From the IMG/VR virus record IMGVR_UViG_3300038673_000493, positions 26,580 through 90,579 of that record: a DNA stretch of 64,000 nt. One strand, given 5' to 3'. The stretch is from a virus (lineage: Duplodnaviria; Caudoviricetes). Positions 715 to 64,000 of this stretch are shown here, piece after piece. The first letter of the stretch is position 1; every line of letters begins with the position of its first letter. The translations under genes were made by a program, and so were the position numbers. The notes beneath the pieces were generated by a model. The model searched no databases. It was given only the letters and a program-made list of their open reading frames with translations, and was not told the DNA's origin.

Positions 715-1572
715 ATGACAACTAAACTTTTTCTTGATTCAGGAGCATATTCCGCATATCAGAATAAAACAATTGTTGATATTTATGAATACATGGATTT
801 TATCAAGAAGCATGAAAAAGAAATAACTACTTATGCAAATCTTGATTCTATAGGTTCCGCAGAAGAAACTTGGAAGAATCAGAGAATAATGGAACAACAC
901 GGATTCAATCCCATTCCTGTTTATCATTTAGATGAGGATAATAAATATCTTGATATGTGTTTGAAATATCCTTATTTTGCTGTCGGAGGATTAGCTTCTG
1001 CAAAGGGCAAATCGTTAAAACCTTTTCTGAAAAAAGTATTTGTAAAAGTATGTCCTGAAAGTAATAATTATTATCCCATCTGTAAAGTTCATGGTTTTGG
1101 AATAGCTACTCCTGAAATCATTACTTTTTTTCCCTGGTACAGTATTGATACTACTTCTTGGGTTCAATACGGACGATACGGAATTATACTTGTTCCCAGA
1201 GTAGAGTTTGGAAATATAACATACAAAAAACCACCTATGTCAGTAGCAATTTCTTCAAAATCAAAAGCTATTGGTGACATAAAACATTTTAGACATTGCC
1301 GTGAAAAAGATGAAGTAATGGAATATTGTAGGATTAAAAATTTTCCTATTGGCAAAACTTTGACAAAGAAAGTTAATCCTGGTTATGAATTAAAAGAAAA
1401 TGAATCTTGGATTGATAGAAAAACAAAAGATAAAGTACAAGTGATTATTGAAAGAGGATTGTGTTGTGATGGGGAAATGCGGGATGCTTTGAATTTACAG
1501 TATTTTTTGGATCTTGAAAAACATATTCCTAAATATCCTTGGCAATATAAACATATTCCTAGAGTTGACTGA
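715..1572 (+). CDS. dpdA: TGT-fold, DpdA-like guanine transglycosylase (candidate 7-deazaguanine DNA modification)
   Basis: LFLDSGAYS, YANLD, VHGFG and SIDTTSW motifs typical of phage TGT/DpdA-like proteins. Confidence 0.7.
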   Translation: MTTKLFLDSGAYSAYQNKTIVDIYEYMDFIKKHEKEITTYANLDSIGSAEETWKNQRIMEQHGFNPIPVYHLDEDNKYLDMCLKYPYFAVGGLASAKGKSLKPFLKKVFVKVCPESNNYYPICKVHGFGIATPEIITFFPWYSIDTTSWVQYGRYGIILVPRVEFGNITYKKPPMSVAISSKSKAIGDIKHFRHCREKDEVMEYCRIKNFPIGKTLTKKVNPGYELKENESWIDRKTKDKVQVIIERGLCCDGEMRDALNLQYFLDLEKHIPKYPWQYKHIPRVD

Positions 1573-1590
1573 AAATTTTCAAAAAAATTC

Positions 1591-1606
1591 TGCTATAATT
1601 AAAATA
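1591..1606 (+). promoter_or_regulatory. extended -10 promoter element TGCTATAAT
   Basis: TG-n-TATAAT; identical 16-mer TGCTATAATTAAAATA at 8091-8106; followed by an AAGGAG RBS. Confidence 0.6.
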
Positions 1607-1633
1607 GAAAATAAAAATAAAGGAGAAACCAAA

Positions 1634-2062
1634 ATGCATAAACAAGAAAAATTGTTAAATGCAATTATAAAATCTATCAAACATTGGGAAAAAGATATTC
1701 TTGAAAAGTTAAAAGATGGAGATCGAGCATTCTTAAATTCTTCAGGAATACTTTTTTGGGAAGTTGATGAAACAGAAATTCCTTGTTATGAAAAAAATTG
1801 TCCTTTATGTTTGCATCGTGATAAATATTCAATTTCAGATACCTGTCATGAATGTCCATTATTTGAATGCACCAAAATAGATTGCAATGAATCAGGAAGT
1901 TCTTGGAGTAATTGGTTAACACATCCAAGTGAAAAAACAGCTAATGCGATGATCAGAGATTTAAAGAAAACTTTATTATGGTATTTGCAAGAATTGAAAA
2001 TAAGTGGTGAAATTTATGAGAAAAGAATTTCAGATATTAGGAGTAAATACGGGAAGGATTAA
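1634..2062 (+). CDS. Cys-rich hypothetical protein
   Basis: AAGGAG RBS before ATG 1634; CPLC and CHECPL motifs. Confidence 0.7.
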   Translation: MHKQEKLLNAIIKSIKHWEKDILEKLKDGDRAFLNSSGILFWEVDETEIPCYEKNCPLCLHRDKYSISDTCHECPLFECTKIDCNESGSSWSNWLTHPSEKTANAMIRDLKKTLLWYLQELKISGEIYEKRISDIRSKYGKD

Positions 2063-2078
2063 TTTAAAGGAAAGTAAT

Positions 2079-2204
2079 ATGAGACATGATGACTCGGATC
2101 AAAATGCAGAATATGCCAGATTGAAAAATCTGGAATCGTATGAAATCGAACGGAAAGAAAAAGAAGCCAAACAAAAAGAAAAAGAATCGGAAGATAACGA
2201 TTGA
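2079..2204 (+). CDS. small charged hypothetical protein (41 aa)
   Basis: ATG after AAGGAAAG; fills the intergenic gap. Confidence 0.45.
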   Translation: MRHDDSDQNAEYARLKNLESYEIERKEKEAKQKEKESEDND

Positions 2205-2246
2205 AAATTTCACGTTGATATGCTAACTATAGTTAGTGAGGTGATT

Positions 2247-3194
2247 ATGCAGCCAGAGATGGAATTTGATAAAAAAAATGGCAGTAAACTAACCATTGAA
2301 AATCAAGATGTATATTTTTACACATCAGAAAATATGCCTTTTATAAAAGATGGTTCTGTTAATTTATTTATAACAAGTCCGCCATATTGGAACTTGAAGA
2401 ATTATGGAGGAACACCTAATCAAATTGGGAGAGAACCTTATGAAACTTATTTAGAACGCTTAAATAAAGTATGGCGTGAATGTTTCAGGGTTGCTAAAGA
2501 TAATAGCGTTCTTATCATAAATATTAATTCAAGAAGAGTAGACAAACGGTTTTATCCTATAGCCCTTGATATATACAAAGAAATGAAATTGTGGAAATTA
2601 TGGGATGTGCTAATTTGGTATATTCCGAATGCATTACCACAATGTAAACACTACATGAATAGATTATTTGATAATAAATTTGAGTATCTTTTAATATTTA
2701 CCAAAGGTGATCCAGAAAAACATACTTTTCATAAGCCACGGGTTCCTCAAAAATATGCCACAGCCGATCCACGGCAACATAAAAAAAACAACGCCGGTCG
2801 ATGCATAGGAAACGTATTTAGGATAGCTGCATATAGACCTCCAAATGTCAAACAATTAAGTTATCATGTGGCTGCGTATCCTGAAGAATTAGTTGCTTTT
2901 ATGCTAGAGACGTATACTAACTCCAATGATATAGTTTTAGATCCCTTCCTTGGGAGCGGTACAACTTTAAAAGTCGCCAAGGCCATGAATCGAAAGGGAA
3001 TTGGCTTTGAGTTAAATGATAATTATAAGGAATTGATTGAGGAAAAAATTAAAGAATATTGGGAACCGCCCGACTGGAAGAAACTGGACATAATTCATTC
3101 ATCGACTATGAATACAGGTCTAAAGACCCCTCGAAAGATTCAATTCAAGAAAAATAATGATCTAGTGATAATAGATAACCAGAGTTTATTTTAG
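2247..3194 (+). CDS. DNA N4-cytosine/N6-adenine methyltransferase, beta class
   Basis: TSPPYW catalytic motif precedes VLDPFLGSGTT SAM motif; GAGGTG RBS before ATG 2247. Confidence 0.92.
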   Translation: MQPEMEFDKKNGSKLTIENQDVYFYTSENMPFIKDGSVNLFITSPPYWNLKNYGGTPNQIGREPYETYLERLNKVWRECFRVAKDNSVLIININSRRVDKRFYPIALDIYKEMKLWKLWDVLIWYIPNALPQCKHYMNRLFDNKFEYLLIFTKGDPEKHTFHKPRVPQKYATADPRQHKKNNAGRCIGNVFRIAAYRPPNVKQLSYHVAAYPEELVAFMLETYTNSNDIVLDPFLGSGTTLKVAKAMNRKGIGFELNDNYKELIEEKIKEYWEPPDWKKLDIIHSSTMNTGLKTPRKIQFKKNNDLVIIDNQSLF

Positions 3195-3297
3195 AAACAC
3201 TAAAACTTTACCAGCTTCAATGCCTGGTTTTAGATTTCTTTTAAAAATTATATTGTTTTTATATCTTGAAAGAAACGGTCAAAATTATTGAAAGTAG

Positions 3298-3513
3298 GTG
3301 ATTACAATCATTCTATACTTATCCGGTAATTTCCCTCAATTATCAAAGATTGAGAAAGAACAAAAGATGGCTGAAAACAATCAAAGAAAAGGAGCAGGAT
3401 ACCATCGTCTTATGACTTTCTATTATAAAAAAGATTGTCATACGATTCTGCAAGTGGCTAAAAATATCAAACCAAAAATAACTTTACATAGGAGAATCAA
3501 AGATGAGGATTGA
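3298..3513 (+). CDS. small protein resembling the N-terminal strands of TGT/DpdA-like proteins
   Basis: LYLSG...HRLMTFYY pattern; stop overlaps the clamp gene start. Confidence 0.5.
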   Translation: MITIILYLSGNFPQLSKIEKEQKMAENNQRKGAGYHRLMTFYYKKDCHTILQVAKNIKPKITLHRRIKDED

Positions 3514-4537
3514 TACCAGAGAATTGAGAAATATTTTGTCATTGTTAAGACCAGCTCTTAACAAAAGAGAGCTTGCCCAACAAACAAGTCATTTTATTTT
3601 CTTCAAGGATAAAATTGCTGTTTTCGATACAAAAATCTGCATAACACATCCGTTTGAAAGTGATTATGTATTTTCAATCAAAGGAGAAGAATTTCATCGT
3701 TTGATAAATGGAATTTCGGAAGATGAATTAACTTTAACTATCGATGATAAAAAAACAAAAGCAGAGATACGAACGGATTCAACTTCCTCAACAATGAAAT
3801 TGCTTGATGAAGATCAGGATAAGTATTCTGAAAAAATAAAAAGTCTTGAAAAGAAAATGGGGAAATGGAAAAAACTTCCCAAAGATTTTATTGAAGCTCT
3901 TTCATTATGCAGTTTCACCACATCAACTGATTTAACAGAAGGAGTAAGGACTTGTATTTGCTTCAAAGATAATTATGCTTATTCTTGTGATGGTCATAGA
4001 GTAAGCAGATATAAATTATCGGAGTCTGCGGAAGATGATATAAATGTACCAATCAGAGCCGCTTTAGAACTTATAAAATTTCCTGTAACTGAATATTGTT
4101 TTAGTGGAGAATGGCTTTGTTTCAGAACGGACGAAGATGTGACTTTTTCTTGTTTAGCAATCAATGGAGATTTTCCTTTTGAGAAGATTTCAAAGCCCTT
4201 CAAAGAATTAGAAGAATTATCCACAATTGAACTGCCTGAAGAATTGAAACAAACAATCGATGAAACATTAATGCTTGCTTCAGAAGATACGGCATTCGCT
4301 GGTAAAATAATCACCCTTCATCTTGAAAACAATGAGATACTAGTGACAGCATCTAATGATCTGGGAAACGTCAGCAAACGAGTTTCTTTTGATTATGAAG
4401 AAACACCAATTGATATTAAAATCAATTCTAGTTTCTTATACCAAATTTTAAACAAATCAACGGAAATGTATATCGGAGAAATGATATTTTTTGTAACTCC
4501 TAATTTTCAACACTTCATGGTTAAACGAATAGGATAA
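3503..4537 (+). CDS. dnaN: DNA polymerase sliding clamp (beta-clamp-like)
   Basis: 344 aa, YAYSCDGHRVS (cf. ATDGHRL) and GDFP motifs; adjacent to polymerase and clamp loader. Confidence 0.8.
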   Translation: MRIDTRELRNILSLLRPALNKRELAQQTSHFIFFKDKIAVFDTKICITHPFESDYVFSIKGEEFHRLINGISEDELTLTIDDKKTKAEIRTDSTSSTMKLLDEDQDKYSEKIKSLEKKMGKWKKLPKDFIEALSLCSFTTSTDLTEGVRTCICFKDNYAYSCDGHRVSRYKLSESAEDDINVPIRAALELIKFPVTEYCFSGEWLCFRTDEDVTFSCLAINGDFPFEKISKPFKELEELSTIELPEELKQTIDETLMLASEDTAFAGKIITLHLENNEILVTASNDLGNVSKRVSFDYEETPIDIKINSSFLYQILNKSTEMYIGEMIFFVTPNFQHFMVKRIG

Positions 4538-4540
4538 ATA

Positions 4541-7132
4541 ATGATTCCATCATTTTTTGATGATGATGATTTTATCACCACATCAACAAGCCATCTTTGT
4601 GCTGAATGCAAAAAAGATGTTCGTAGTCGATATAAAAAATTACCCGCAATAGGGGATGGTAAAGTAAGTACATTAATTGTAACGGATACTTTTTTAGACT
4701 TACCTGAATCGTCTAGTGGTAAACATATCGGAGACGGAGAAAAATGGTTTGAAAAGCAACTGAAGAAACGCAGACTTGATTTGTTTTCTGATTTTTGGAT
4801 TATCGGGACAACTCTTTGCAGATCAATTCATGATTACACCAAGCAAGATATAACATATTGTTTTCCAAACATTCTAAATTTTATCAGAGAGCATAAACCT
4901 AAGTTTGTTGTTCTATTAGGAGAAAAAGCAATCGAATCATGGTTTCAATCTCGCTTTTCAAATCTGTCAAGAGAAAGATGGAATAATGTATGCATACCTG
5001 ATTTTGAAAGAAAAGTATGGGTTATTCCTCTTTATCATCCTTCTTATGTTGTAAAAAACGAAAATAATTCCTTAATATCTTCTCAATATGAAAGAGGATT
5101 GGATTTTTTAAAAGAATGCATTATTTCAAAACATGATCTAAACACATTGAAAAGACCTAATTTCGATGATGTTATCGTAATGAAAGATTATGATCAGGTT
5201 TGTGAGGAACTTTCTTATGTAATTGAAAAACCACCTAAATGTATTTGCTTTGACTATGAAACAACTGGATTGAAACCTTACAGACAAGGACACAGAATTG
5301 CCTCTATTTCATATTGTTCCAGTTACTTTAAAGCATTTTCATTTCCTTATCAATATCCTTATTGGAAACCTTTTCAGCAAAAAAAGATCAAAGAAAAATG
5401 GAATCAAATTCTGCAAAATGATTCTTTGAAAATAGCTCATAACATAAAATTTGAAGATGTTTGGTCAAGAATCATTTTACAGACACAGCCGAATAATTGG
5501 CATTGGTGTACTATGGTCGGTGCCCATTCAATTGATAATCGTGCTAAATATTCAGGATTAAAATTTCAATCATTCTTGCATTGGGGATTGCCTAATTATG
5601 ACAAAGAAATAAAACCGTATTTAGAATCATTCGATGATACTGGATTCAATCGGGTAATGAAAGCTCCTCTAAACAAACTTCTTTTATATGGTGGAATCGA
5701 TTCTCTTATTACATTCTGGCTTTTCTTCCTTCAGAAAAAAGAAATGAATGATCACATCATGCAAGGATTTGATCTTTTTGTTGAGGGGACTTTAGCTCTA
5801 GCAGATGTTCAAATTCATGGTATAAACGCGGATACCGAATATTATCATAGAACACATACAGAATTGACAGAACGAATAAAAAAGACGGAGAAAGAGCTTT
5901 TACACTATGATGAATGTAAACAATTTGAAAAAGTTTATGGAAGATTGCCTAATTTAGGATCATCCAAAGATTTAGAAATGATGTTCTTTAAGGTTCTTAA
6001 ATTAGAACCAATAAAACTGACAAGTAGTGGCAAAACAAATGCTGTTGATGCCGATGTAATGAGTAAATTAAACACTCCTCTTGCAAAAGCTATTACCGAT
6101 CTATCACGAATTAAAAAAGTTGATGGCACTTACGTTGCTCAATTTATCAGAGAGATTGATGATGATAATCGTATTCATCCTTTCTATGATCTAACAACTG
6201 TTAAAACATATCGTGGAAGTTCTAGCGGTCCTAACTTTCAAAATATTCCTGTAAGAAATGAAGAGGCAAAAAAATATTCACGATCAGGCATTATTCCCTC
6301 ACCAGGATTTAAAATTCTTGACTTTGATTATGGAGCCATTGAAGTAAGAATGGGAGCTTGCTATACAAAAGATCCTGTATTGATTTCATATATCATGGAT
6401 CCATCAACCGATATGCATCGTGATACTGCAATTGATATTTTCTCATTGAAAAAAGCTCCCGCATCTTTTTGGAAAGACAAGAAAACAGGAAATAAATTAA
6501 GATTCTTCACAAAGAATGGATTTGTATTTCCCGAATGGTACGGATCATATTATAAAAATTGTGCTAAAAATATTTGGAGAGAATGTTCTGAAATACTGAC
6601 TCATGAAGGAATTACTGTCAGAGAGCATTTTAAACGAATTGGTAAAGCCACAGATAAAACGGTGCTTGATTATTTTATCAATCACGTTAAAAAAGTAGAA
6701 GATGCTTATTGGAAAAAATTCAAAGTATTCAAACAATGGCAAGATGCTCAATATAAATTTTATGAAGAAACTGGTTTAGTAAAACTGCTGTCTGGTTTTG
6801 AATGTAAAGGATATTTAGGCAGAAATGAAATCGTTAATTATGCTTTTCAAGGAACTGCATTTCATTGTCTGCTTTGGAGTTTGATTCAGATAAACGGAGA
6901 ATTTAAAGCAAGAGGGATGTTATCAAAAATTATCGGACAAATTCATGATTGTTGTGTAATTGATACTCATCCTAAAGAAGAAAAATTAGTTCGACAAATA
7001 GCCTCAGAGATTGCAACAAAACGTATTAAAGAACATTTTAAATGGATTATTGTTCCATTAATTATTGAATGGGAAAATACAGAAATAGATCAATGTTGGT
7101 ATTCTAAAATCGAAACGAGAGAAGAGGAGTAA
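4541..7132 (+). CDS. polA: family A DNA polymerase with N-terminal family-4 UDG-like domain and 3'-5' exonuclease
   Basis: UDG-like CxxC...CR...C and YHPSY; exo DYETTG, HNIKFE, YGGID; pol SSSGPNFQNIP, DYGAIEVR, K..F....YG, QIHD. Confidence 0.93.
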   Translation: MIPSFFDDDDFITTSTSHLCAECKKDVRSRYKKLPAIGDGKVSTLIVTDTFLDLPESSSGKHIGDGEKWFEKQLKKRRLDLFSDFWIIGTTLCRSIHDYTKQDITYCFPNILNFIREHKPKFVVLLGEKAIESWFQSRFSNLSRERWNNVCIPDFERKVWVIPLYHPSYVVKNENNSLISSQYERGLDFLKECIISKHDLNTLKRPNFDDVIVMKDYDQVCEELSYVIEKPPKCICFDYETTGLKPYRQGHRIASISYCSSYFKAFSFPYQYPYWKPFQQKKIKEKWNQILQNDSLKIAHNIKFEDVWSRIILQTQPNNWHWCTMVGAHSIDNRAKYSGLKFQSFLHWGLPNYDKEIKPYLESFDDTGFNRVMKAPLNKLLLYGGIDSLITFWLFFLQKKEMNDHIMQGFDLFVEGTLALADVQIHGINADTEYYHRTHTELTERIKKTEKELLHYDECKQFEKVYGRLPNLGSSKDLEMMFFKVLKLEPIKLTSSGKTNAVDADVMSKLNTPLAKAITDLSRIKKVDGTYVAQFIREIDDDNRIHPFYDLTTVKTYRGSSSGPNFQNIPVRNEEAKKYSRSGIIPSPGFKILDFDYGAIEVRMGACYTKDPVLISYIMDPSTDMHRDTAIDIFSLKKAPASFWKDKKTGNKLRFFTKNGFVFPEWYGSYYKNCAKNIWRECSEILTHEGITVREHFKRIGKATDKTVLDYFINHVKKVEDAYWKKFKVFKQWQDAQYKFYEETGLVKLLSGFECKGYLGRNEIVNYAFQGTAFHCLLWSLIQINGEFKARGMLSKIIGQIHDCCVIDTHPKEEKLVRQIASEIATKRIKEHFKWIIVPLIIEWENTEIDQCWYSKIETREEE

Positions 7133-7135
7133 ATC

Positions 7136-8068
7136 ATGGAATTGAATTTGAAACACCGTCCTAAAAAGATTAAAGACATTTTCGGAAATGAATCTGTAAA
7201 AGAAAGTATCACCAGTATTTTAAACAGAGATCAAGAAAACATTCCTCATGCTTTCTTATTTCACGGTCCTACTGGTACAGGGAAAACAACAATGGCAAGA
7301 ATACTTGCTAATGAGCTAGGATGCCCTGCTGATGAAATTATAGAATATAATACGGCTTCTATGAGAGGAATTGATACCATAAGAAACATTATAGAAGATT
7401 GTGTTTATGCACCTCTTGAGGGCTATTCAAAAGTATATATTCTTGATGAAGTTCACCGACAAACCAAAGATGCTCAAAATGCTTTATTGAAATTAGCAGA
7501 AGAACCACCTAAACAAGTTTACATTATCTTATGCACCACGGATCCTGAAAAATTAATACCTGCTCTTTTAGGAAGATGCACCACATATCAAATGAAACCT
7601 TTAAGACCCACAGAAATGACAAAATTGATTGATCATATTTTAGATGTAGAAGGTTTTGCTCCTACTGAATATCCATCAAGAATAAAAAAAGAAATTATCA
7701 GATTATCAGAATGCTTACCACGAAATGCATTAAAGCTTTTAGATGCTATTATTGATATGCAAGACGAGGATGCCATCATAGATGCTCTTTCTGCCGTATC
7801 TTTAGATACTGTAGAAGCAAAAGAACTATTCAATGCTCTTTTAAAAGGAGAATCATGGGATAATGTTCGTAAGATGGTGAAAACATTACTAGAAGCAAAC
7901 GAACCTGAACAAATAAGGTTAGGTCTTTTAGGGTATATGAGAAATGTTTTGCTTAACTCAAAATCAAATGACAGAGCTTCCTATATCATTGATACTTTTA
8001 GCGAAAATACTTATAACGCAGGAGCATCTTTATTGGTAAACATGTTTTATTCGGTTTGTAAAAAATAA
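7136..8068 (+). CDS. dnaX: clamp-loader AAA+ ATPase (DnaX gamma/tau-like)
   Basis: GPTGTGKTT Walker A, ILDEVH Walker B, AQNALLK, GRC arginine finger. Confidence 0.9.
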   Translation: MELNLKHRPKKIKDIFGNESVKESITSILNRDQENIPHAFLFHGPTGTGKTTMARILANELGCPADEIIEYNTASMRGIDTIRNIIEDCVYAPLEGYSKVYILDEVHRQTKDAQNALLKLAEEPPKQVYIILCTTDPEKLIPALLGRCTTYQMKPLRPTEMTKLIDHILDVEGFAPTEYPSRIKKEIIRLSECLPRNALKLLDAIIDMQDEDAIIDALSAVSLDTVEAKELFNALLKGESWDNVRKMVKTLLEANEPEQIRLGLLGYMRNVLLNSKSNDRASYIIDTFSENTYNAGASLLVNMFYSVCKK

Positions 8069-25778: not shown

Positions 25779-26672
25779 TTACCAAGTATAATCTTTATCT
25801 GTGGTTGTTATAAGAACTTTATCTAACCAAATAAAATTATTAGATCGACAGACCCATTCTATGCCATTTAATCCTTCAAAAGCATTATCTGATAAAGCTA
25901 TTCCAGAACCCACTACATCATCATCTATTGTTATTAAAATTTCTCTTCCAGAACCAAAAACTGTTATTTTAAATTCATGCCAAACATCATAAGATATGGT
26001 GGTGACAGTATCAGAATTAACTAAAATACTTTCATTACCATTTACATACAAAACTAATTTTAAAACACCTAAAGAATAATAATAATAACAATTAATACGC
26101 GGGTAAAAACCATTAGTGTACAAAGGCTCAAAATACCAAAGAGCAGATCCACTAGGAATTAAAAATCTAATGGAATAAATAAAATTATTAGGAAATAAAA
26201 AATCCCAATAATTTACATAACTATTATCAGAAAATCGGAGACTTGCAGAACCGCTATAATATTGTGCTGTATCAATTTCAACATTTTCTAGATTATCTGG
26301 AATAAGCCCTTGTGCTTCTTCAATCCAAGTAGTTGCCCCATCCATACCATCAAAATTACATTTAAATATTTCTCTTACCACAGGTGCAGGTTTAACCGAA
26401 CTCATTCCACTACTATTTTTAGGATTAGCTTCCACTTTATTCATAATAACATAAGTTCCAGATACTTTTCCAATTAAAACAATCATTCCTACTCGCAAAT
26501 CATTCAGATCATATAGATAGGTGCCTGTCGAAATTAGGCCATTTTTCATGGCTAATGTCACTCTCCCTTTATTTCTGTCTATAGCTAGTATCTTCGCTTG
26601 ACTTAATGCTTTTTTCACGGCATTCTCTTTAAAAATTCTATTTACCATATATGTTTTAAAACCAATATTCAT
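25779..26672 (-). CDS. receptor-binding protein paralog 3 (conserved N-domain + ConA-like beta-sandwich); likely start GTG 26618
   Basis: KGRVTL..KNGLIS.GTYL.D.NDLRVGM N-domain shared with paralogs 1 and 2. Confidence 0.65.
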   Translation of the reverse strand: MNIGFKTYMVNRIFKENAVKKALSQAKILAIDRNKGRVTLAMKNGLISTGTYLYDLNDLRVGMIVLIGKVSGTYVIMNKVEANPKNSSGMSSVKPAPVVREIFKCNFDGMDGATTWIEEAQGLIPDNLENVEIDTAQYYSGSASLRFSDNSYVNYWDFLFPNNFIYSIRFLIPSGSALWYFEPLYTNGFYPRINCYYYYSLGVLKLVLYVNGNESILVNSDTVTTISYDVWHEFKITVFGSGREILITIDDDVVGSGIALSDNAFEGLNGIEWVCRSNNFIWLDKVLITTTDKDYTW

Positions 26673-59026: not shown

Positions 59027-59055
59027 TTGACAAAACTATATGGTTTCTTTATACT
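59027..59055 (+). promoter_or_regulatory. strong sigma70 promoter (rightward, early operon)
   Basis: TTGACA-17 nt-TATACT with T-tract upstream. Confidence 0.88.
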
Positions 59056-59061
59056 TTGCTT

Positions 59062-59623
59062 GACAATTGAATAGTAGTTGATAGCTGACGAGATTACAAC
59101 ATAGTCAGAGAGATTGAACCAGAAAGCATTGCTTTCGCATCGAAGTATGATGTTAACCGCACTTTCACATAACGATTCTTTAATGATGCGAATCATGATC
59201 GAATCCGCTAGAAAAAAATGCTGTTGACCACAAGACTACAGAGCGTGGTTTAAAAACGATTAGATCAGCGAACAGTTATTTTTGACGAAAAAAGCGAAAG
59301 TCCTAGTGAACTTCTCTTGAGCTGACTGGTTAGACAATATGCTATCTGGGAACAATCACTTTGCAGACATGATGAAAAGACTCGTTTCGGGTATAGTCAG
59401 AAAATATTTGATTATTATGTCATGAGCAAACATATTTGGGTAAGAACGTCACGAAAATCTGTTCGGCAAAATCAGTAGACGGATCGCACTAGGCACTCTC
59501 TTTCTTTTCTCCTTCAGATCGTTGTCCGTGCATTATTGACAATGATCTGTTTGACGGGCAAGAAGAAATTCTTGCCCGTCTTGTTTGAATGCTCAAACAG
59601 AAATGGTTGAGCATTGAAACAAG
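59062..59623 (+). ncRNA. candidate large structured RNA / long leader
   Basis: No + strand ORF of 60 aa or more for about 590 nt after the promoter; strong hairpins at 59515-59549, 59553-59580 (GAAA loop) and 59580-59623. Confidence 0.5.
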
Positions 59624-59649
59624 TCTAACTTGAAAGGAGAAAGAAAGAT

Positions 59650-60147
59650 ATGGAGCAAGCTAAAGACAAAAAAGCTTATTACGGTTACATCTTGATGGAG
59701 CGATTTGGCAGTCAACGAGTACGTCATTTCCGAAAATCAACTGCACGTCGGTTAAGCGTAGCTGAAGCTCGAATCCACGATTTGATAAGAAATGGTCGTT
59801 GGACAAACGAAAGAATCTTTGAAATCTGGGATGGAATCAATCCAAAATTGATTATCACATGCAGAAAAAACGAAAATGGAAATATCGTGATTACCAAAAA
59901 AGACTACTTTAAAGAGTATGTTGGTTTCATTGAGACACGAAAAGGAAAAATTTTCGTGAATGATGTAGTTGGTCGTGACAGAGACTATTTTTTGGCAACA
60001 AAGAATAGACGAAATATCACGATCGGAGCAAGAGCGGGTGATTTGACTTCTTTTGTCAAAAAAGAAGCAATGGACAAAGTTCTTTGTCAAAAAGTATCTG
60101 CTCGGGGTTACAAAGTATCAGAAAAAGTCACAAAACGGGAGTTCTGA
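59650..60147 (+). CDS. early hypothetical protein
   Basis: AAAGGAGAAAG RBS. Confidence 0.75.
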   Translation: MEQAKDKKAYYGYILMERFGSQRVRHFRKSTARRLSVAEARIHDLIRNGRWTNERIFEIWDGINPKLIITCRKNENGNIVITKKDYFKEYVGFIETRKGKIFVNDVVGRDRDYFLATKNRRNITIGARAGDLTSFVKKEAMDKVLCQKVSARGYKVSEKVTKREF

Positions 60148-60153
60148 AAAGAA

Positions 60154-60221
60154 TGCAGAGAGACAACGATGGTCAAAGATCATCGTTGGTAATGCACAGT
60201 TTCGGTCTCAAGTCCGAAATA
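60154..60221 (+). ncRNA. twister ribozyme 1 (permuted, P5-type); predicted cut 60190/60191
   Basis: GCA-GA-GAG, P1 hairpin, U|AA-UGC-AC, P4 UUUCGG/CCGAAA with loop UCUCAAGU. Confidence 0.85.
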
Positions 60222-60243
60222 CTAACTTAAAAGGAGAAAGAAA

Positions 60244-60615
60244 ATGAAAGAGAAAAAGAATCCTCGGGAAGAAATCGTTGTGGTCTTTTCTGATGAAATG
60301 CCGGATGAGGACATTCAATTATTGGCAGAAGATGTTGAAGAAACGAGCTTCATGATTTTGGAAGTTTTCGACAACGGAAACAAAGTGATTGCTGATATTC
60401 CTTCAGAAATCCCCGATCCAGACTTCAAAGGAACTCTTGAAGAATATTGGATGGATGTTCTGAATGAAACAAAATGTCCATGCTGTCATCCGATTGAAGA
60501 ATCACAAATTGCTGTTTGGGCAGTTTATCGTTTGAAAGATTTCATCAAAAAGGATAAGAAATTGAATCCCAAGATAGGCGGAGCTTACAGAGACATTTGG
60601 GAAAAGTATCTGTAG
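60244..60615 (+). CDS. early acidic hypothetical protein
   Basis: Conserved RBS; CPCCH. Confidence 0.75.
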   Translation: MKEKKNPREEIVVVFSDEMPDEDIQLLAEDVEETSFMILEVFDNGNKVIADIPSEIPDPDFKGTLEEYWMDVLNETKCPCCHPIEESQIAVWAVYRLKDFIKKDKKLNPKIGGAYRDIWEKYL

Positions 60616-60618
60616 CAT

Positions 60619-60684
60619 TGCAGAGAGGACGGAGTCAGAAATGACTTCGTTTAATGCACACTTCTGGTCTCAAGTCCAGAAAAT
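60619..60684 (+). ncRNA. twister ribozyme 2; predicted cut 60652/60653
   Basis: T2 GAG/CUC; P4 UUCUGG/CCAGAA. Confidence 0.85.
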
Positions 60685-60710
60685 AGAGAGAGAAAGAAAG
60701 GAGTAGGAAA

Positions 60711-60884
60711 ATGATTTCGGAAAAGTTTTTGCTGAAATGCTATGCGGAAACGGGGAATCGTAAATTCTTGCAGAGAGCCAAAGCAATTGCAAAATCAGAA
60801 AGGTATGCAAAAGACAAACGATTCCGAGAAATTGAAACAACAAATCGTGATGTATTCCCTTCCCTAGCTGAATGTCAAAGATAG
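60711..60884 (+). CDS. early small protein (57 aa)
   Basis: AAGGAG RBS; fills the space between ribozymes 2 and 3. Confidence 0.65.
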   Translation: MISEKFLLKCYAETGNRKFLQRAKAIAKSERYAKDKRFREIETTNRDVFPSLAECQR

Positions 60885-60886
60885 CT

Positions 60887-60953
60887 TGCAGAGGGCATGA
60901 AGTCATAAATGGCTTCATGTAATGCACAATCTCCGTCCCAAGTCGGAGAAATA
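60887..60953 (+). ncRNA. twister ribozyme 3; predicted cut 60920/60921
   Basis: T2 GGG/CCC; P4 UCUCCG/CGGAGA. Confidence 0.85.
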
Positions 60954-60978
60954 AAAATTGAAAAGGAGAAAAAAAGAA

Positions 60979-61161
60979 ATGGGAGAAAACAATTACAGCG
61001 TGGAAGTAAAAGGTAAGGAAATGATCATTCGGATAGACCTGTCACAAAATTTGGGCAGAAGTCAGTCAGGAAAAAACATTCTTGTTGCTTCTTCCAAGGG
61101 CAATCAGTTCATTGAAAAAGCCGGAGTAACACTCGGTCTCAATGTTTACAAGAAAGCCTAA
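60979..61161 (+). CDS. early small beta-rich protein (60 aa)
   Basis: IDLSQNLGRSQSGKNILVASSKGN...LGLNVY. Confidence 0.75.
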   Translation: MGENNYSVEVKGKEMIIRIDLSQNLGRSQSGKNILVASSKGNQFIEKAGVTLGLNVYKKA

Positions 61162-61163
61162 AT

Positions 61164-61230
61164 TGCAGAAGGGTCGGAGTCAGAAATGGCTCCGATTAAT
61201 GCGCCTATCAGGTCCTAAGCCCTGATAAAA
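61164..61230 (+). ncRNA. twister ribozyme 4; predicted cut 61197/61198
   Basis: Both pseudoknots covary: T2 AGG/CCU, T1 GC/GC; loop UCCUAAGC. Confidence 0.88.
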
Positions 61231-61257
61231 TCAAACGCATTAAAAGGAGAAAGAAAG

Positions 61258-61890
61258 ATGAAAAAGAATGAGAAAAACCTGGCAAAGACGACAAAGAAGG
61301 CTGATGCAAAAGCGGATGCAAAAGCGAAAATCACCTTGACGCCGAAAGCAAATGTGGCACCGGTAGCAGAGTCAAAAGGACCAGACCGTCCTGAAATGCC
61401 TGCTAATTTCTGTCTCACGAAAAAAGAGTGGGATTCGGATGCTACAGGTTTCGATGCCACAAGCAATCAGTGCAAAGCTTGCGGGAAAGATTTTCCTGAT
61501 ACTTGCAAAGTTTGCAAAACCCGTGCAGAGTTTCTGGCTTCTAAAGCGAAGGAAGCAAAAGTCAGAAAAGCTGGTGGTCTCCGCAAGACAAGTTCTACTT
61601 CCGGTATTCCCCCGCAGACAAAGATCATTGATGACGGTCTGCTGGCAAAACTGCCGAAGTCAGAAATTGTCACGAATCTAGCAATGGCTCACTATGGTGG
61701 CAATGGAGAAGCAAATATTGCTCTTGCAACAAAACGGTTTGATCGGCATCTGAAGTCGATCAAAGACGGTTCTTATGTCAGAGCGGCAACGGTCGTCAAT
61801 TGCATTGCTTATCTGTCGGCAAAAGCTGTTAAAGCAGAGCAGGCACCGGCAAAAGCATCGGCAAAGGTTACTTCTTCTAAAAAGAAGTAG
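61258..61890 (+). CDS. early basic protein: Cys cluster + HTH-like domain, Lys/Ala-rich ends
   Basis: C..CKAC..CKVC; QTKIID...EI...L...ATKRFDRHL. Confidence 0.8.
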   Translation: MKKNEKNLAKTTKKADAKADAKAKITLTPKANVAPVAESKGPDRPEMPANFCLTKKEWDSDATGFDATSNQCKACGKDFPDTCKVCKTRAEFLASKAKEAKVRKAGGLRKTSSTSGIPPQTKIIDDGLLAKLPKSEIVTNLAMAHYGGNGEANIALATKRFDRHLKSIKDGSYVRAATVVNCIAYLSAKAVKAEQAPAKASAKVTSSKKK

Positions 61891-61902
61891 CGAATGATTC
61901 AT

Positions 61903-61976
61903 TGCAGAGGGACAAGGGGTCAGAAATTCTTCTGGCTCCTTGGTAATGCACAATTTCAGTCCCAAGTCTGAAAATA
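61903..61976 (+). ncRNA. twister ribozyme 5; predicted cut 61944/61945
   Basis: 12-bp P1 with wobbles; P4 UUUCAG/CUGAAA. Confidence 0.85.
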
Positions 61977-61999
61977 AACGAGAAAAGGAGAAGGGAGTT

Positions 62000-62110
62000 A
62001 TGAAAAGGAAAGACATAAGAATCATAAGAAAAGCAATTGAATGGGCTTTGAGAGCATTAGTTATTGGCATTCTTGTGGGAATCGTTTATATGATTGTAAC
62101 AATCCCGTAA
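62000..62110 (+). CDS. early small membrane protein (36 aa)
   Basis: MKRKDIRIIRKAIEWALRALVIGILVGIVYMIVTIP*. Confidence 0.65.
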   Translation: MKRKDIRIIRKAIEWALRALVIGILVGIVYMIVTIP

Positions 62111-62111
62111 T

Positions 62112-62173
62112 TGCAGAGGGAGCGGAGTCAAAAACTCCGCTTAATGCACAATCACCGTCCCAAGTCGGTGAAG
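62112..62173 (+). ncRNA. twister ribozyme 6; predicted cut 62142/62143
   Basis: P1 GCGGAGU/ACUCCGC; P4 UCACCG/CGGUGA. Confidence 0.85.
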
Positions 62174-62190
62174 AAAGGAGAAAGAAAGAA

Positions 62191-62496
62191 ATGAACTACC
62201 AAGAAGTGAGGAAAAAAGCGAAAGAGTTCAAAGAAGTATCCAAAGAATTGGATGATCGTTTAATAAAAATTGCCAATATGACATGGCAAACAATTGCTGG
62301 AGATGTTTTTGATTGTATCGGCAAAGATACAATGAAAAGATCCGAAGTTATTGAATGCGTAGGGGATGCGGACTACATGTTCACACATGGAAACGATCCT
62401 GAAGCTTATGCTTATTTTCTTTACCTGTTCCATAACAATGAAAAACATCTTCAGAAAGTTATGAAACAGGCTTTTCCGTATGCAAAATATTGTTAG
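62191..62496 (+). CDS. early hypothetical protein (101 aa)
   Basis: Conserved RBS before ATG 62191. Confidence 0.75.
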   Translation: MNYQEVRKKAKEFKEVSKELDDRLIKIANMTWQTIAGDVFDCIGKDTMKRSEVIECVGDADYMFTHGNDPEAYAYFLYLFHNNEKHLQKVMKQAFPYAKYC

Positions 62497-62557
62497 CAGA
62501 GGGGGCGGAGCTTCTGCTCCGTCTAATGCACACTTGCCGTCCCAAGTCGGCAAAATA
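62496..62557 (+). ncRNA. twister ribozyme 7; predicted cut 62524/62525
   Basis: P1 GGCGGAGC/GCUCCGUC; P4 UUGCCG/CGGCAA; starts at the G of the UAG stop. Confidence 0.85.
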
Positions 62558-62582
62558 GAGAGAGAAAGAAAGGAGAAAGAAA

Positions 62583-62759
62583 ATGCCAACAGAACAATTA
62601 TTGCTGCCGAAAGAAGATCCTAAAGAAGTCTTTTTTTACAAACATGGAGATATTGCTGTTATGAATCCAGCAACTCCGGGAGTTCCTGTTCGAGCTTTCT
62701 TCATTACAAGAAATGATCTAAATGGGTTATGGGGCATATTTATTGGACAAACAAGATAG
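62583..62759 (+). CDS. early small protein (58 aa)
   Basis: Conserved RBS; MPTEQLLLPKEDPKEVFFYKHG...GQTR*. Confidence 0.65.
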   Translation: MPTEQLLLPKEDPKEVFFYKHGDIAVMNPATPGVPVRAFFITRNDLNGLWGIFIGQTR

Positions 62760-62821
62760 CAGAGGGGACGGAGCTAAAAACTCCGTCTAATGCACAATCA
62801 CCGTCCCAAGTCGGTGAAATA
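62759..62821 (+). ncRNA. twister ribozyme 8; predicted cut 62788/62789
   Basis: P1 GACGGAG/CUCCGUC; P4 UCACCG/CGGUGA. Confidence 0.85.
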
Positions 62822-62844
62822 AAAGAGAAAAGGAGAAAAAGAAA

Positions 62845-63159
62845 ATGAGCAAGCGACAGGAAGAAATTCAGGAAGCCCTTCGGTTAGAGGCAGAAAAAAA
62901 ATTGGCGATAGAGCTGGTTGAAAAACTGGCTAATTATGTGAACATAATGGGCAGAGATTATGCTCCATTTATCGAAAGACTTATTTACGGAACCCATCGA
63001 ACATTGCAACAATCTGTTTTTGGACTGTTTTTACAATGCATTAAAGGTTTTGCTGAATTACCAGAAAGATATACTGATCCTCGTAATGAAGCAACCGTTG
63101 AAGTTTGTAAGAAAATCATGGAAGCAGTGGAAGGCAGAACGAGACTTCCTTTGATTTAG
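62845..63159 (+). CDS. early hypothetical protein
   Basis: HRTLQQ...RNEA motifs; conserved RBS. Confidence 0.75.
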   Translation: MSKRQEEIQEALRLEAEKKLAIELVEKLANYVNIMGRDYAPFIERLIYGTHRTLQQSVFGLFLQCIKGFAELPERYTDPRNEATVEVCKKIMEAVEGRTRLPLI

Positions 63160-63174
63160 CGTTCAGAAAAATTT

Positions 63175-63236
63175 TGCAGAGAGGTCGGAGCAATAGCTCC
63201 GATTAATGCACAATCCCAGTCTCAAGTCTGGGAAAT
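63175..63236 (+). ncRNA. twister ribozyme 9; predicted cut 63204/63205
   Basis: T2 GAG/CUC; P1 UCGGAGC/GCUCCGA; P4 UCCCAG/CUGGGA. Confidence 0.85.
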
Positions 63237-63260
63237 AAAAAGAAAAGGAGAAAGAAAGAA

Positions 63261-63281
63261 ATGGAAGAGAAAATCATTTGA
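63261..63281 (+). pseudogene. interrupted early gene start (MEEKII*)
   Basis: Full conserved RBS, then a stop after 6 codons at the edge of the endonuclease cassette. Confidence 0.55.
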
Positions 63282-63306
63282 CAATTTATCCTAAATAAAA
63301 TATACT
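63278..63306 (+). promoter_or_regulatory. sigma70 promoter of the GIY-YIG cassette
   Basis: TTGACA-17 nt-TATACT, then AAGGAG RBS. Confidence 0.85.
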
Positions 63307-63326
63307 CCAAATAAAAAGGAGTATTT

Positions 63327-64000
63327 ATGAAAAAAGAATATTATGTTTACATTTACTTGGATACAAGTAAACCAGGTAAATATGTTTATGGAGAATACAA
63401 ATTTTTACATGAGCCTATTTATGTGGGAAAAGGTAAACGCAAAAGAGCCTATTATTATGAAAAAAGAAACAAATACCTTAAAAATAAAATAAAAAAAATA
63501 GGAAAACCCATTATTTTAATAATAACAAAGGATTTGGAAGAATCAAAAGCATTTGAATTAGAAAAATTTTTAATTGCTTTAATAGGTAGAAAAGATTTAG
63601 GAAAAGGACCATTATGTAATTTTACGGATGGTGGAGAAGGACCGAGTGGAAACATTCGATCCAAAGAAACAAGAAAGAAAATGTCCATTGCTAAAAAAGG
63701 AAGAATTGTTTCCGAAGAAACAAGAAAAAAATTATCCGATATTAATAAAGGCAAAGTAATGCCTGAATCGGTTAAAGAAAAAATAAAAAATACTTTAATG
63801 GGAACACACAGATCGGAAAAAACAAAATTGAAAATTTCTTTAGGTCATAGAACTTCAATGCTTGATAAATCTAAATCACAAACAACCCGAGATAAAATGA
63901 GAAAAGCAAATTTAGGTAAAACATTATCACAAACAACCCGAGATAAAATGAGAAAAGCAAATTTAGGTAAAACATTATCACAAACAACCCGAGATAAAAT
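63327..64000 (+). mobile_element. GIY-YIG homing endonuclease with NUMOD3 repeats (partial, runs off the window)
   Basis: YVYIYLD...PIYVGKG...E...NFTDGGEG, then (R/V)SxETRKK(M/L)S repeats. Confidence 0.88.
63876..64000 (+). repeat. exact 51-bp tandem repeat (17-aa NUMOD3 unit), about 2.5 copies
   Basis: Units start at 63876, 63927 and 63978. Confidence 0.9.

Follow-up and report, generated by a model that had tools for sequence, protein, structure and literature searches.

Nine consecutive intergenic spaces in a 64,000-nucleotide (nt) stretch of the viral record IMGVR_UViG_3300038673_000493 (the window; positions 26580 to 90579, the last 64 kb of this 90,579-base-pair [bp] IMG/VR record) each carry one ribozyme of the twister class (Roth et al. 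2014; reviewed in PMC5408937) in the circularly permuted form known as type P5. On the basis of family model matches, covariation, and the conserved core, we confirmed the nine elements as genuine type-P5 twisters, and we found them to be part of a longer array of 20. We consider it probable, at roughly 75%, that these twisters are functional, that they lie in one long early transcript and cut it into standard monocistronic mRNAs, and that each gene with its twister behaves as a cassette-like unit.

The record carries direct repeats of 55 bp at its termini, and its completeness is estimated at 100%. It encodes the phage hallmarks large terminase, HK97-type capsid protein, prohead protease, and family A DNA polymerase, with a sliding clamp and a clamp loader also among the replication genes. 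Judged by these features, the source is a complete 90.6-kb uncultivated tailed double-stranded DNA phage. Its nearest isolated relatives reach at most 28% identity in the capsid protein and at most 24% in the DNA polymerase. No tRNAs were found in the window.

A preliminary description of the window, made from the letters of the sequence, had proposed nine twister-type ribozymes. We scanned the 64 kb with cmscan against Rfam at the curated gathering thresholds (37.6 bits for Twister-P5, RF02684). Exactly nine matches were returned, all to this family, all on the plus strand, scoring between 44.5 and 54 bits and each spanning the model in full (1-58/58). Within the twister clan, P5 was the best-scoring model for the window copies. 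An E-value scan with Rfam over the whole array region detected nothing but twisters and two chance-level matches. An independent parse of the copies gave the element order GCA-GA-RRG, closed P1 hairpin, U/AA (the slash marking the predicted cut), UGC-RC, one or two spacer bases, P4, A-rich spacer, and ribosome-binding site (RBS). P1 is closed by a loop and the ends fall between P4 and the 3' strand of P2, which is the P5 permutation. Both this permutation and the architecture given in the preliminary description (GCA-GA-NNN-P1-UAA-UGC-RC-P4, then an A-rich spacer and an RBS) agree with the parse, and the nine U-A cleavage sites proposed there are identical to those it yields. Across the array copies, P4 comprises 6 to 7 bp with an 8-nt loop, UCYYAAGY, and P1 comprises 7 to 13 bp. 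Folded alone, each window copy adopts P2, P1, and P4 in its minimum-free-energy structure, with z scores from -3.7 to -5.9. The phage copies thus share with the Rfam type-P5 twister its element order, invariant core, both pseudoknots, and full-length matches above the cut-off; they differ by having no consistent P5 stem, the flanks giving at most two to three A-U pairs in the parse.

Covariation supports the same structure. Standard pairs fill 98.3% of the pair cells in the alignment of the 20 genome copies, and compensatory changes occur at 15 of the 21 pairs. When the 3' partners were slid by one to three columns as a control, only 23 to 47% of cells paired. We then built a covariance model from the 20 copies, leaving the pseudoknots out, and applied it to 81 IMG/VR contig stretches that had been fetched beforehand by a short pattern search. 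This gave 225 further matches. Among the best 150 of these were 131 distinct sequences, with 99.3% of cells paired and compensatory changes at 18 of the 21 pairs. The pseudoknots were paired at 99.5% (T1) and 100% (T2) in these 131 sequences. Since the pseudoknots were absent from the search model, this pairing was not imposed by it. P1 and P4 pair at 97 to 100%, 11 of their 12 pairs showing compensatory changes, and P2 (GCA/UGC) is invariant and paired over three pairs. A fourth P2 pair, between position 1 and the A of AC, was considered and rejected: position 1 is A in 65 of 150 aligned related copies, and its would-be partner is A in 143 of the 150 and covaries with L4 instead.

In published nomenclature, the three-pair interaction between L1 and L4 is T1 and the two-pair interaction between L2 and L4 is T2 (PMC5408937). 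The preliminary description had the pairings themselves right, and its record of their states copy by copy stands, but because of this convention its labels T1 and T2 are swapped. T1 (RRG/YYC) occurs across the 20 copies as GAG/CUC six times, GGG/CCC 12 times, and AGG/CCU twice, without a mismatch; in the window, GAG/CUC is found in copies 1, 2, and 9, GGG/CCC in copies 3 and 5 to 8, and AGG/CCU in copy 4. T2 is AC/GU in 19 of the 20 copies and GC/GC in the remaining one, window copy 4, and is paired in all. Twenty alignment columns are invariant among the 20 copies. These include the GCAGA and UAAUGC segments, G-U-C at the junction of P4 and L4, and the AAG and closing C of L4, and they agree with the upper-case consensus positions of the Rfam model. 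Read by position, the G of GA would be the catalytic G45/G48 of twister. Family membership predicts site-specific self-cleavage that leaves a 2',3'-cyclic phosphate and a 5'-OH.

Extent and placement of the array

The array described initially as nine copies extends beyond the window. Nine are indeed present there, one in each of the consecutive intergenic spaces from 60148 to 63260, as the preliminary description had stated and our gene and ribozyme map bears out. A search of the whole record with Rfam yielded 20 Twister-P5 matches above the cut-off (39.6 to 58.3 bits), all on the plus strand, of which 11 lie beyond the window at record positions 917-6576. Taken across the record ends, these form one array in which 20 twisters, each on the coding strand, are spread along about 10.4 kb. 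The same search found no twisters on the opposite strand or elsewhere in the genome. Twisters are confined to the first approximately 10 kb, which holds small early-type genes; none occurs in the replication or late modules. In a Pfam scan of 18 array genes and an inserted homing-endonuclease gene, 15 of the 19 had no family. The exceptions were a borderline DUF932 match (22.9 bits against a cut-off of 23), a DUF2845/BamE-like protein, DUF7168, and NUMOD3 (the homing endonuclease). We infer that the array marks an early, variable host-takeover region. Its features in the window are as follows (all on the plus strand; lengths in amino acids [aa]; for each twister, the extent is followed by its RF02684 match coordinates, its score, and the predicted cut).

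59027-59055, +: near-consensus sigma-70-type promoter at the operon head, TTGACA-17-TATACT, 11/12 (consensus match only)
59650-60147, +: first array gene, 165 aa, no Pfam family
60155-60220, +: Twister-P5 copy 1; match 60154-60217; 49.9 bits; z score -5.9; predicted cut U60190/A60191
60244-60615, +: gene, 123 aa, no family
60620-60681, +: Twister-P5 copy 2; match 60619-60679; 44.5 bits; predicted cut U60652/A60653
60711-60884, +: gene, 57 aa, no family
60888-60949, +: Twister-P5 copy 3; match 60887-60947; 49.2 bits; predicted cut U60920/A60921
60979-61161, +: gene, 60 aa, no family
61165-61227, +: Twister-P5 copy 4, with T1 AGG/CCU and T2 GC/GC; match 61164-61224; 45.8 bits; predicted cut U61197/A61198
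61258-61890, +: gene, 210 aa, no family
61904-61973, +: Twister-P5 copy 5, with a long P1; match 61903-61971; 51.2 bits; predicted cut U61944/A61945
62000-62110, +: small gene, 36 aa, C-terminal half hydrophobic; homologues in two related contigs
62113-62171, +: Twister-P5 copy 6; match 62112-62169; 50.6 bits; predicted cut U62142/A62143
62191-62496, +: gene, 101 aa, no family; the first G of copy 7 lies within its TAG stop
62496-62553, +: Twister-P5 copy 7; match 62495-62551; 50.8 bits; predicted cut U62524/A62525
62583-62759, +: gene, 58 aa, no family; its stop overlaps copy 8
62759-62817, +: Twister-P5 copy 8; match 62758-62815; 48.9 bits; predicted cut U62788/A62789
62845-63159, +: gene, 104 aa, no family
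63176-63233, +: Twister-P5 copy 9; match 63175-63231; 54 bits; predicted cut U63204/A63205
63261-63281, +: six-codon stub open reading frame (ORF), MEEKII and stop, which follows the leader and RBS of copy 9 and is truncated by the insertion
63278-64000 and on to record position ~915, +: insertion of low guanine-plus-cytosine (GC) content, 27.5% versus 40% in the flanks
63278-63306, +: consensus promoter inside the insertion (consensus match only)
From 63327 past the window end, +: homing-endonuclease gene in the insertion; Pfam NUMOD3, N-terminus GIY-YIG-like by eye

Placement of the ribozymes relative to the genes is uniform. Nineteen of the 20 ribozymes begin -1 to 7 nt past the stop codon of the preceding gene, and in four cases a TAG stop includes the first G of the element. 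From the end of P4 to the start codon, distances concentrate around 25 to 30 nt. This leader of roughly 26 nt is 89% purine (9 C in 505 nt) versus 57% for the region, and carries an AAGGAG Shine-Dalgarno sequence. We examined the generality of this placement in 16 other contigs with GC contents of 34 to 68%, which together hold 110 copies, using ORFs of at least 40 codons. Here, a stop codon precedes 102 of the 110 copies by no more than 20 nt (13% for random positions) and 105 are followed by an RBS and start codon within 60 nt (20% for random positions); none of the 110 lies on the non-coding strand. Near-consensus plus-strand promoters were found only at the array head and in the endonuclease insertion, and a scan for plus-strand terminator-like sites inside the array found none.

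Several neighboring features were observed alongside the array. The approximately 590 nt between the head promoter and the first gene (59056-59649) contain no convincing plus-strand gene. At 59553-59580, they hold a 12-bp GAAA-capped hairpin with a U-rich tail, which is terminator- or attenuator-like and matches no Rfam family. The array is interrupted by the insertion and continues from record position 917. The homing endonuclease looks free-standing and appears to have been inserted at the 5' end of the DUF7168 gene, leaving the stub behind; the gene after the insertion (DUF7168) starts MDDKKEAII, to be compared with the MEEKII of the stub. Toward the far end of the array, record positions 6188-6524 hold a 52-codon ORF and then about 180 nt with a second open frame that lacks a clear RBS and stops 3 nt before twister 20; this may be a disrupted or frameshifted gene. 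The first gene past the last twister (record 6607-7401) encodes, close to the N-terminus, a CxxxCxxC motif of the kind seen in radical S-adenosylmethionine enzymes (by eye). From this gene onward, the plus-strand genes are without ribozymes.

The only long junction of the array without a twister (record 6095-6187, outside the window) contains a type II hammerhead-like core at 6096-6154. By a hand-made descriptor, this candidate comprises GAAA, a 6-bp stem III, GUC, an 8-bp stem I, and CUGAAGA, and its loop I UGGC faces a downstream GCCA with which it might form a pseudoknot. It deviates from the hammerhead in having an extra U after A9 and a stem II of only 3 bp, and no Rfam match to it was obtained even at E values up to 10. 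The descriptor gave 0 matches in shuffled sequence; elsewhere, in the twister-bearing contigs L056 and L084, it detected two canonical type II hammerheads.

Proposed cutting into monocistronic mRNAs

The sense-orientation ribozymes flank single genes or short gene blocks of the phage in the gene and ribozyme map. A cut of a polycistronic transcript at each junction fits the scarcity of promoters, the lack of plus-strand terminator-like sites, and the uniform strand and spacing. We therefore propose that host RNA polymerase would start near 59027 and read through about 24 small genes, and that each ribozyme would fold as it emerges and cut between the U and A of UAAUGC. Because of the P5 permutation, this cut splits the element near its middle, into two halves. 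The upstream mRNA would then end 30 to 40 nt past its stop codon with GCAGARRG and a P1 hairpin flush with the 2',3'-cyclic phosphate. The downstream mRNA would begin with a 5'-OH, 8 to 10 free nucleotides, the P4 hairpin, a purine-rich and mostly unstructured leader, and AAGGAG. In predicted folds, the 3' tails left by the cut (P1) have a mean free energy of -14.7 kcal/mol and the 5' ends (P4) a mean of -8.0 kcal/mol. P1 is dispensable for twister catalysis (PMC5408937). That it is nonetheless uniformly strong suggests an additional role as a 3'-end cap. The outcome would be about 20 monocistronic mRNAs with standard ends, whose stability and translation would be independent of the neighboring genes, and the module would combine a maker of 3' ends, a maker of 5' ends, and a translation leader. 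The sequence, the structure, the covariation, and the placement of the elements are shown directly; co-transcription, cleavage in vivo, and an effect of the module on stability are inferred.

Several considerations weigh against this proposal. First, the activity of the sub-type is itself deduced from the family, and the phage copies depart from the Rfam type-P5 consensus in two places: P2 has three pairs instead of four, and 19 of the 20 copies form T2 from A-U/C-G, not from the G-C/C-G of the consensus. Second, the Shine-Dalgarno sequence is well exposed in only about two-thirds of the predicted leader folds (mean unpaired probability 0.68, minimum 0.24). Third, the promoter and terminator scans consisted of consensus matches only. 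Fourth, the 5'-OH made by the glmS ribozyme leads to decay by RNase J1 (Collins 2007, cited in PMC6765202). By analogy, in hosts with RNase J a 5'-OH may trigger decay, so that mRNA stability might change in the direction opposite to our proposal.

Possible cassette exchange and alternative explanations

Related loci carry similar arrays. In a scan of 130 kb from 11 related loci at the Rfam gathering thresholds, all 97 matches were Twister-P5. Five other records carry 7 to 15 copies each, and three of them share the capsid protein (77 to 100% identity). A complete record holding 15 copies lacks any detectable homologue of this capsid protein, and therefore at least two lineages carry such arrays. 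The relative with an identical capsid protein, G004, has shared array genes that are 93 to 100% identical and five extra gene-plus-twister units. Alignments to G004 break in or at twisters, and a single twister of this phage aligns to both twisters flanking an insertion in G004. Of the 24 array genes, no more than 5 and 8 recur in the relatives with 77 to 84% capsid identity, where their order is different. Two further contigs, L117 (CAZVYK010000196.1) and L136 (CAZVYK010000008.1), contain cassettes of this phage in reordered form at 84 to 95% nucleotide identity. In L136, the larger of the two, a pair of cassettes at 93 to 95% nucleotide identity follow each other in the opposite order and are joined inside a twister. 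Apart from these cassettes, L136 represents a distinct phage: its large terminase subunit is of the Terminase_3 family and its small subunit of the Sf6 type, and no other similarity to this phage was found over the 7.3 kb compared. Both contigs were binned with a Caldisericales metagenome-assembled genome, a weak hint of the host that comes from binning only. These comparisons suggest that the gene-plus-twister unit is exchanged between phages, even otherwise dissimilar ones. As a cassette, it would be gained, lost, reordered, and exchanged.

These same observations would be expected if the elements persisted mainly at the DNA level, with the approximately 30-nt core and the leader serving as portable homology for cassette recombination and cleavage being incidental. 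The indel boundaries in G004, the shuffled genes of the more distant relatives, and the swapped cassettes of L136 with their junction inside a twister all favor such an explanation. Homology alone, however, explains neither the compensatory changes in four helices nor a core that is invariant across contigs of 34 to 68% GC. In a comparison of 15 pairs, made to see whether the P4 half is inherited together with the gene that follows it and the P1 half together with the gene that precedes it, few pairs were informative and the outcome was mixed. We regard persistence mainly at the DNA level as unlikely, and it is compatible with RNA processing, the two not being exclusive. A combined role is a tentative possibility: the twister-leader module may have two jobs, RNA cutting and acting as a DNA joint for the swapping of early-gene cassettes, both within and among unrelated phages that share one host community. 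If this were so, the arrays would serve as a marketplace for small genes of host takeover or anti-defence, resembling integrons but needing no recombinase, and an incoming gene would be expressed correctly as it brings its own processing site and RBS.

The ribozymes might instead cut in order to shorten the life of early mRNA, their 5'-OH ends being attacked by a 5'-to-3' exonuclease of the RNase J type. Early expression would then shut off quickly once transcription of the operon stops. The glmS precedent (PMC6765202) points this way, as does the confinement of the array to early-type genes and its absence from the replication and late modules. Two aspects of the design argue against decay as its purpose: a single cut per operon would suffice for 5'-to-3' degradation, and each 5' end has a hairpin and a strong Shine-Dalgarno sequence while each 3' end has a strong flush hairpin. 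Hairpins at the ends and strong Shine-Dalgarno sequences stabilize bacterial mRNAs. On balance, we find this explanation rather improbable.

We hold it to be very improbable that the monocistrons are circularized, the 5'-OH and 2',3'-cyclic phosphate being substrates of RtcB, to give exonuclease-resistant circular mRNAs. Such end chemistry follows from the twister mechanism, the ribozyme halves at the two ends are complementary, P2 is the same in all copies, and the T1 types of neighbors are mostly compatible; they are not systematically matched, though. A search of the phage proteins found neither RtcB nor a member of the Pfam RNA_ligase family, so that circularization would rely on the host, and a weak kinase-like AAA_33 match turned out to be the clamp-loader subunit. 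Moreover, clustered hammerheads gave no circular or spliced products (Perreault 2011, PMC3088659). A T7-type RNA polymerase was likewise sought in the phage without a match, in a search that had no positive control and is hence uninformative. Finally, we give almost no credence to the elements being inactive relics or structured repeats (terminators, or sites bound by RNases or proteins) that only resemble twisters: P2 is one pair shorter than the consensus, but the catalytic-core positions are invariant, both pseudoknots covary, more than 100 copies score well above the curated threshold, and P1 is not followed by a U-tract, so the elements are not intrinsic terminators.

Relation to known ribozymes and significance

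The preliminary description knew of no phage operon with a ribozyme at every gene junction, and the novelty that this implies is not supported. Ribozymes between phage genes were published in 2011 for hammerheads, which are clustered in prophages where they flank single genes; processing into single-gene mRNAs was proposed, and all of the clustered phage hammerheads cleaved in vitro (Perreault et al. 2011, PMC3088659). A 2019 review extended the processing idea to twisters and called the purpose unresolved (PMC6765202). A 2023 paper (PMC10085705) states that in bacteria twisters and hammerheads show an enrichment in each other's vicinity and around phage genes, for which no reason is known. 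The array reported here resembles the prophage hammerheads in having several sense ribozymes between genes and in its proposed role. The published examples consulted have two or three hammerheads, whereas here 20 twisters of one type occupy nearly every junction, and, unlike the prophage ribozymes, the twisters are fused to a standard module of purine-rich leader and Shine-Dalgarno sequence. A full-text literature search, which did not extend to Roth 2014, Weinberg 2015, and Felletti 2017, found no description of arrays of this size. What the phage carries is therefore no new kind of element: phages have been known to have this arrangement since 2011, and the array is a large, very regular case of it. 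What it adds, as the comparison of relatives suggests, is that units of gene plus twister behave as exchangeable cassettes, even between dissimilar phages.

Engineered and natural parallels exist for both aspects of the module. In synthetic insulators of the RiboJ type, a self-cleaving ribozyme and a hairpin upstream of the RBS remove the upstream RNA context, leaving expression to be set by the leader of the cistron itself. RiboJ is engineered and derived from a hammerhead; the phage module is natural, and the same cut would also make the 3' end of the upstream mRNA. Short conserved intergenic elements also bound small variable genes, shuffled among related genomes, in T4-type hyperplastic regions, as promoter-stem-loop joints, and in integrons, as attC sites. 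The phage element differs from these in being a catalytic RNA for which no recombinase is implicated, and its putative role in recombination is read from the breakpoints.

The role of self-cleaving ribozymes in bacteria and phages is still called unknown (PMC10085705, PMC6765202). This genome provides an unusually clean test case, with 20 near-standard units, predicted cuts, and defined mRNA ends. It also offers natural variants, namely three T1 states and one T2 variant, and a close relative that differs by whole cassettes. The hypothesis of processing and insulation thereby becomes directly testable. The units are also natural, mutually distinct intercistronic parts for synthetic operons. 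For the phages themselves, the exchange of cassettes suggests why such arrays mark variable early regions.

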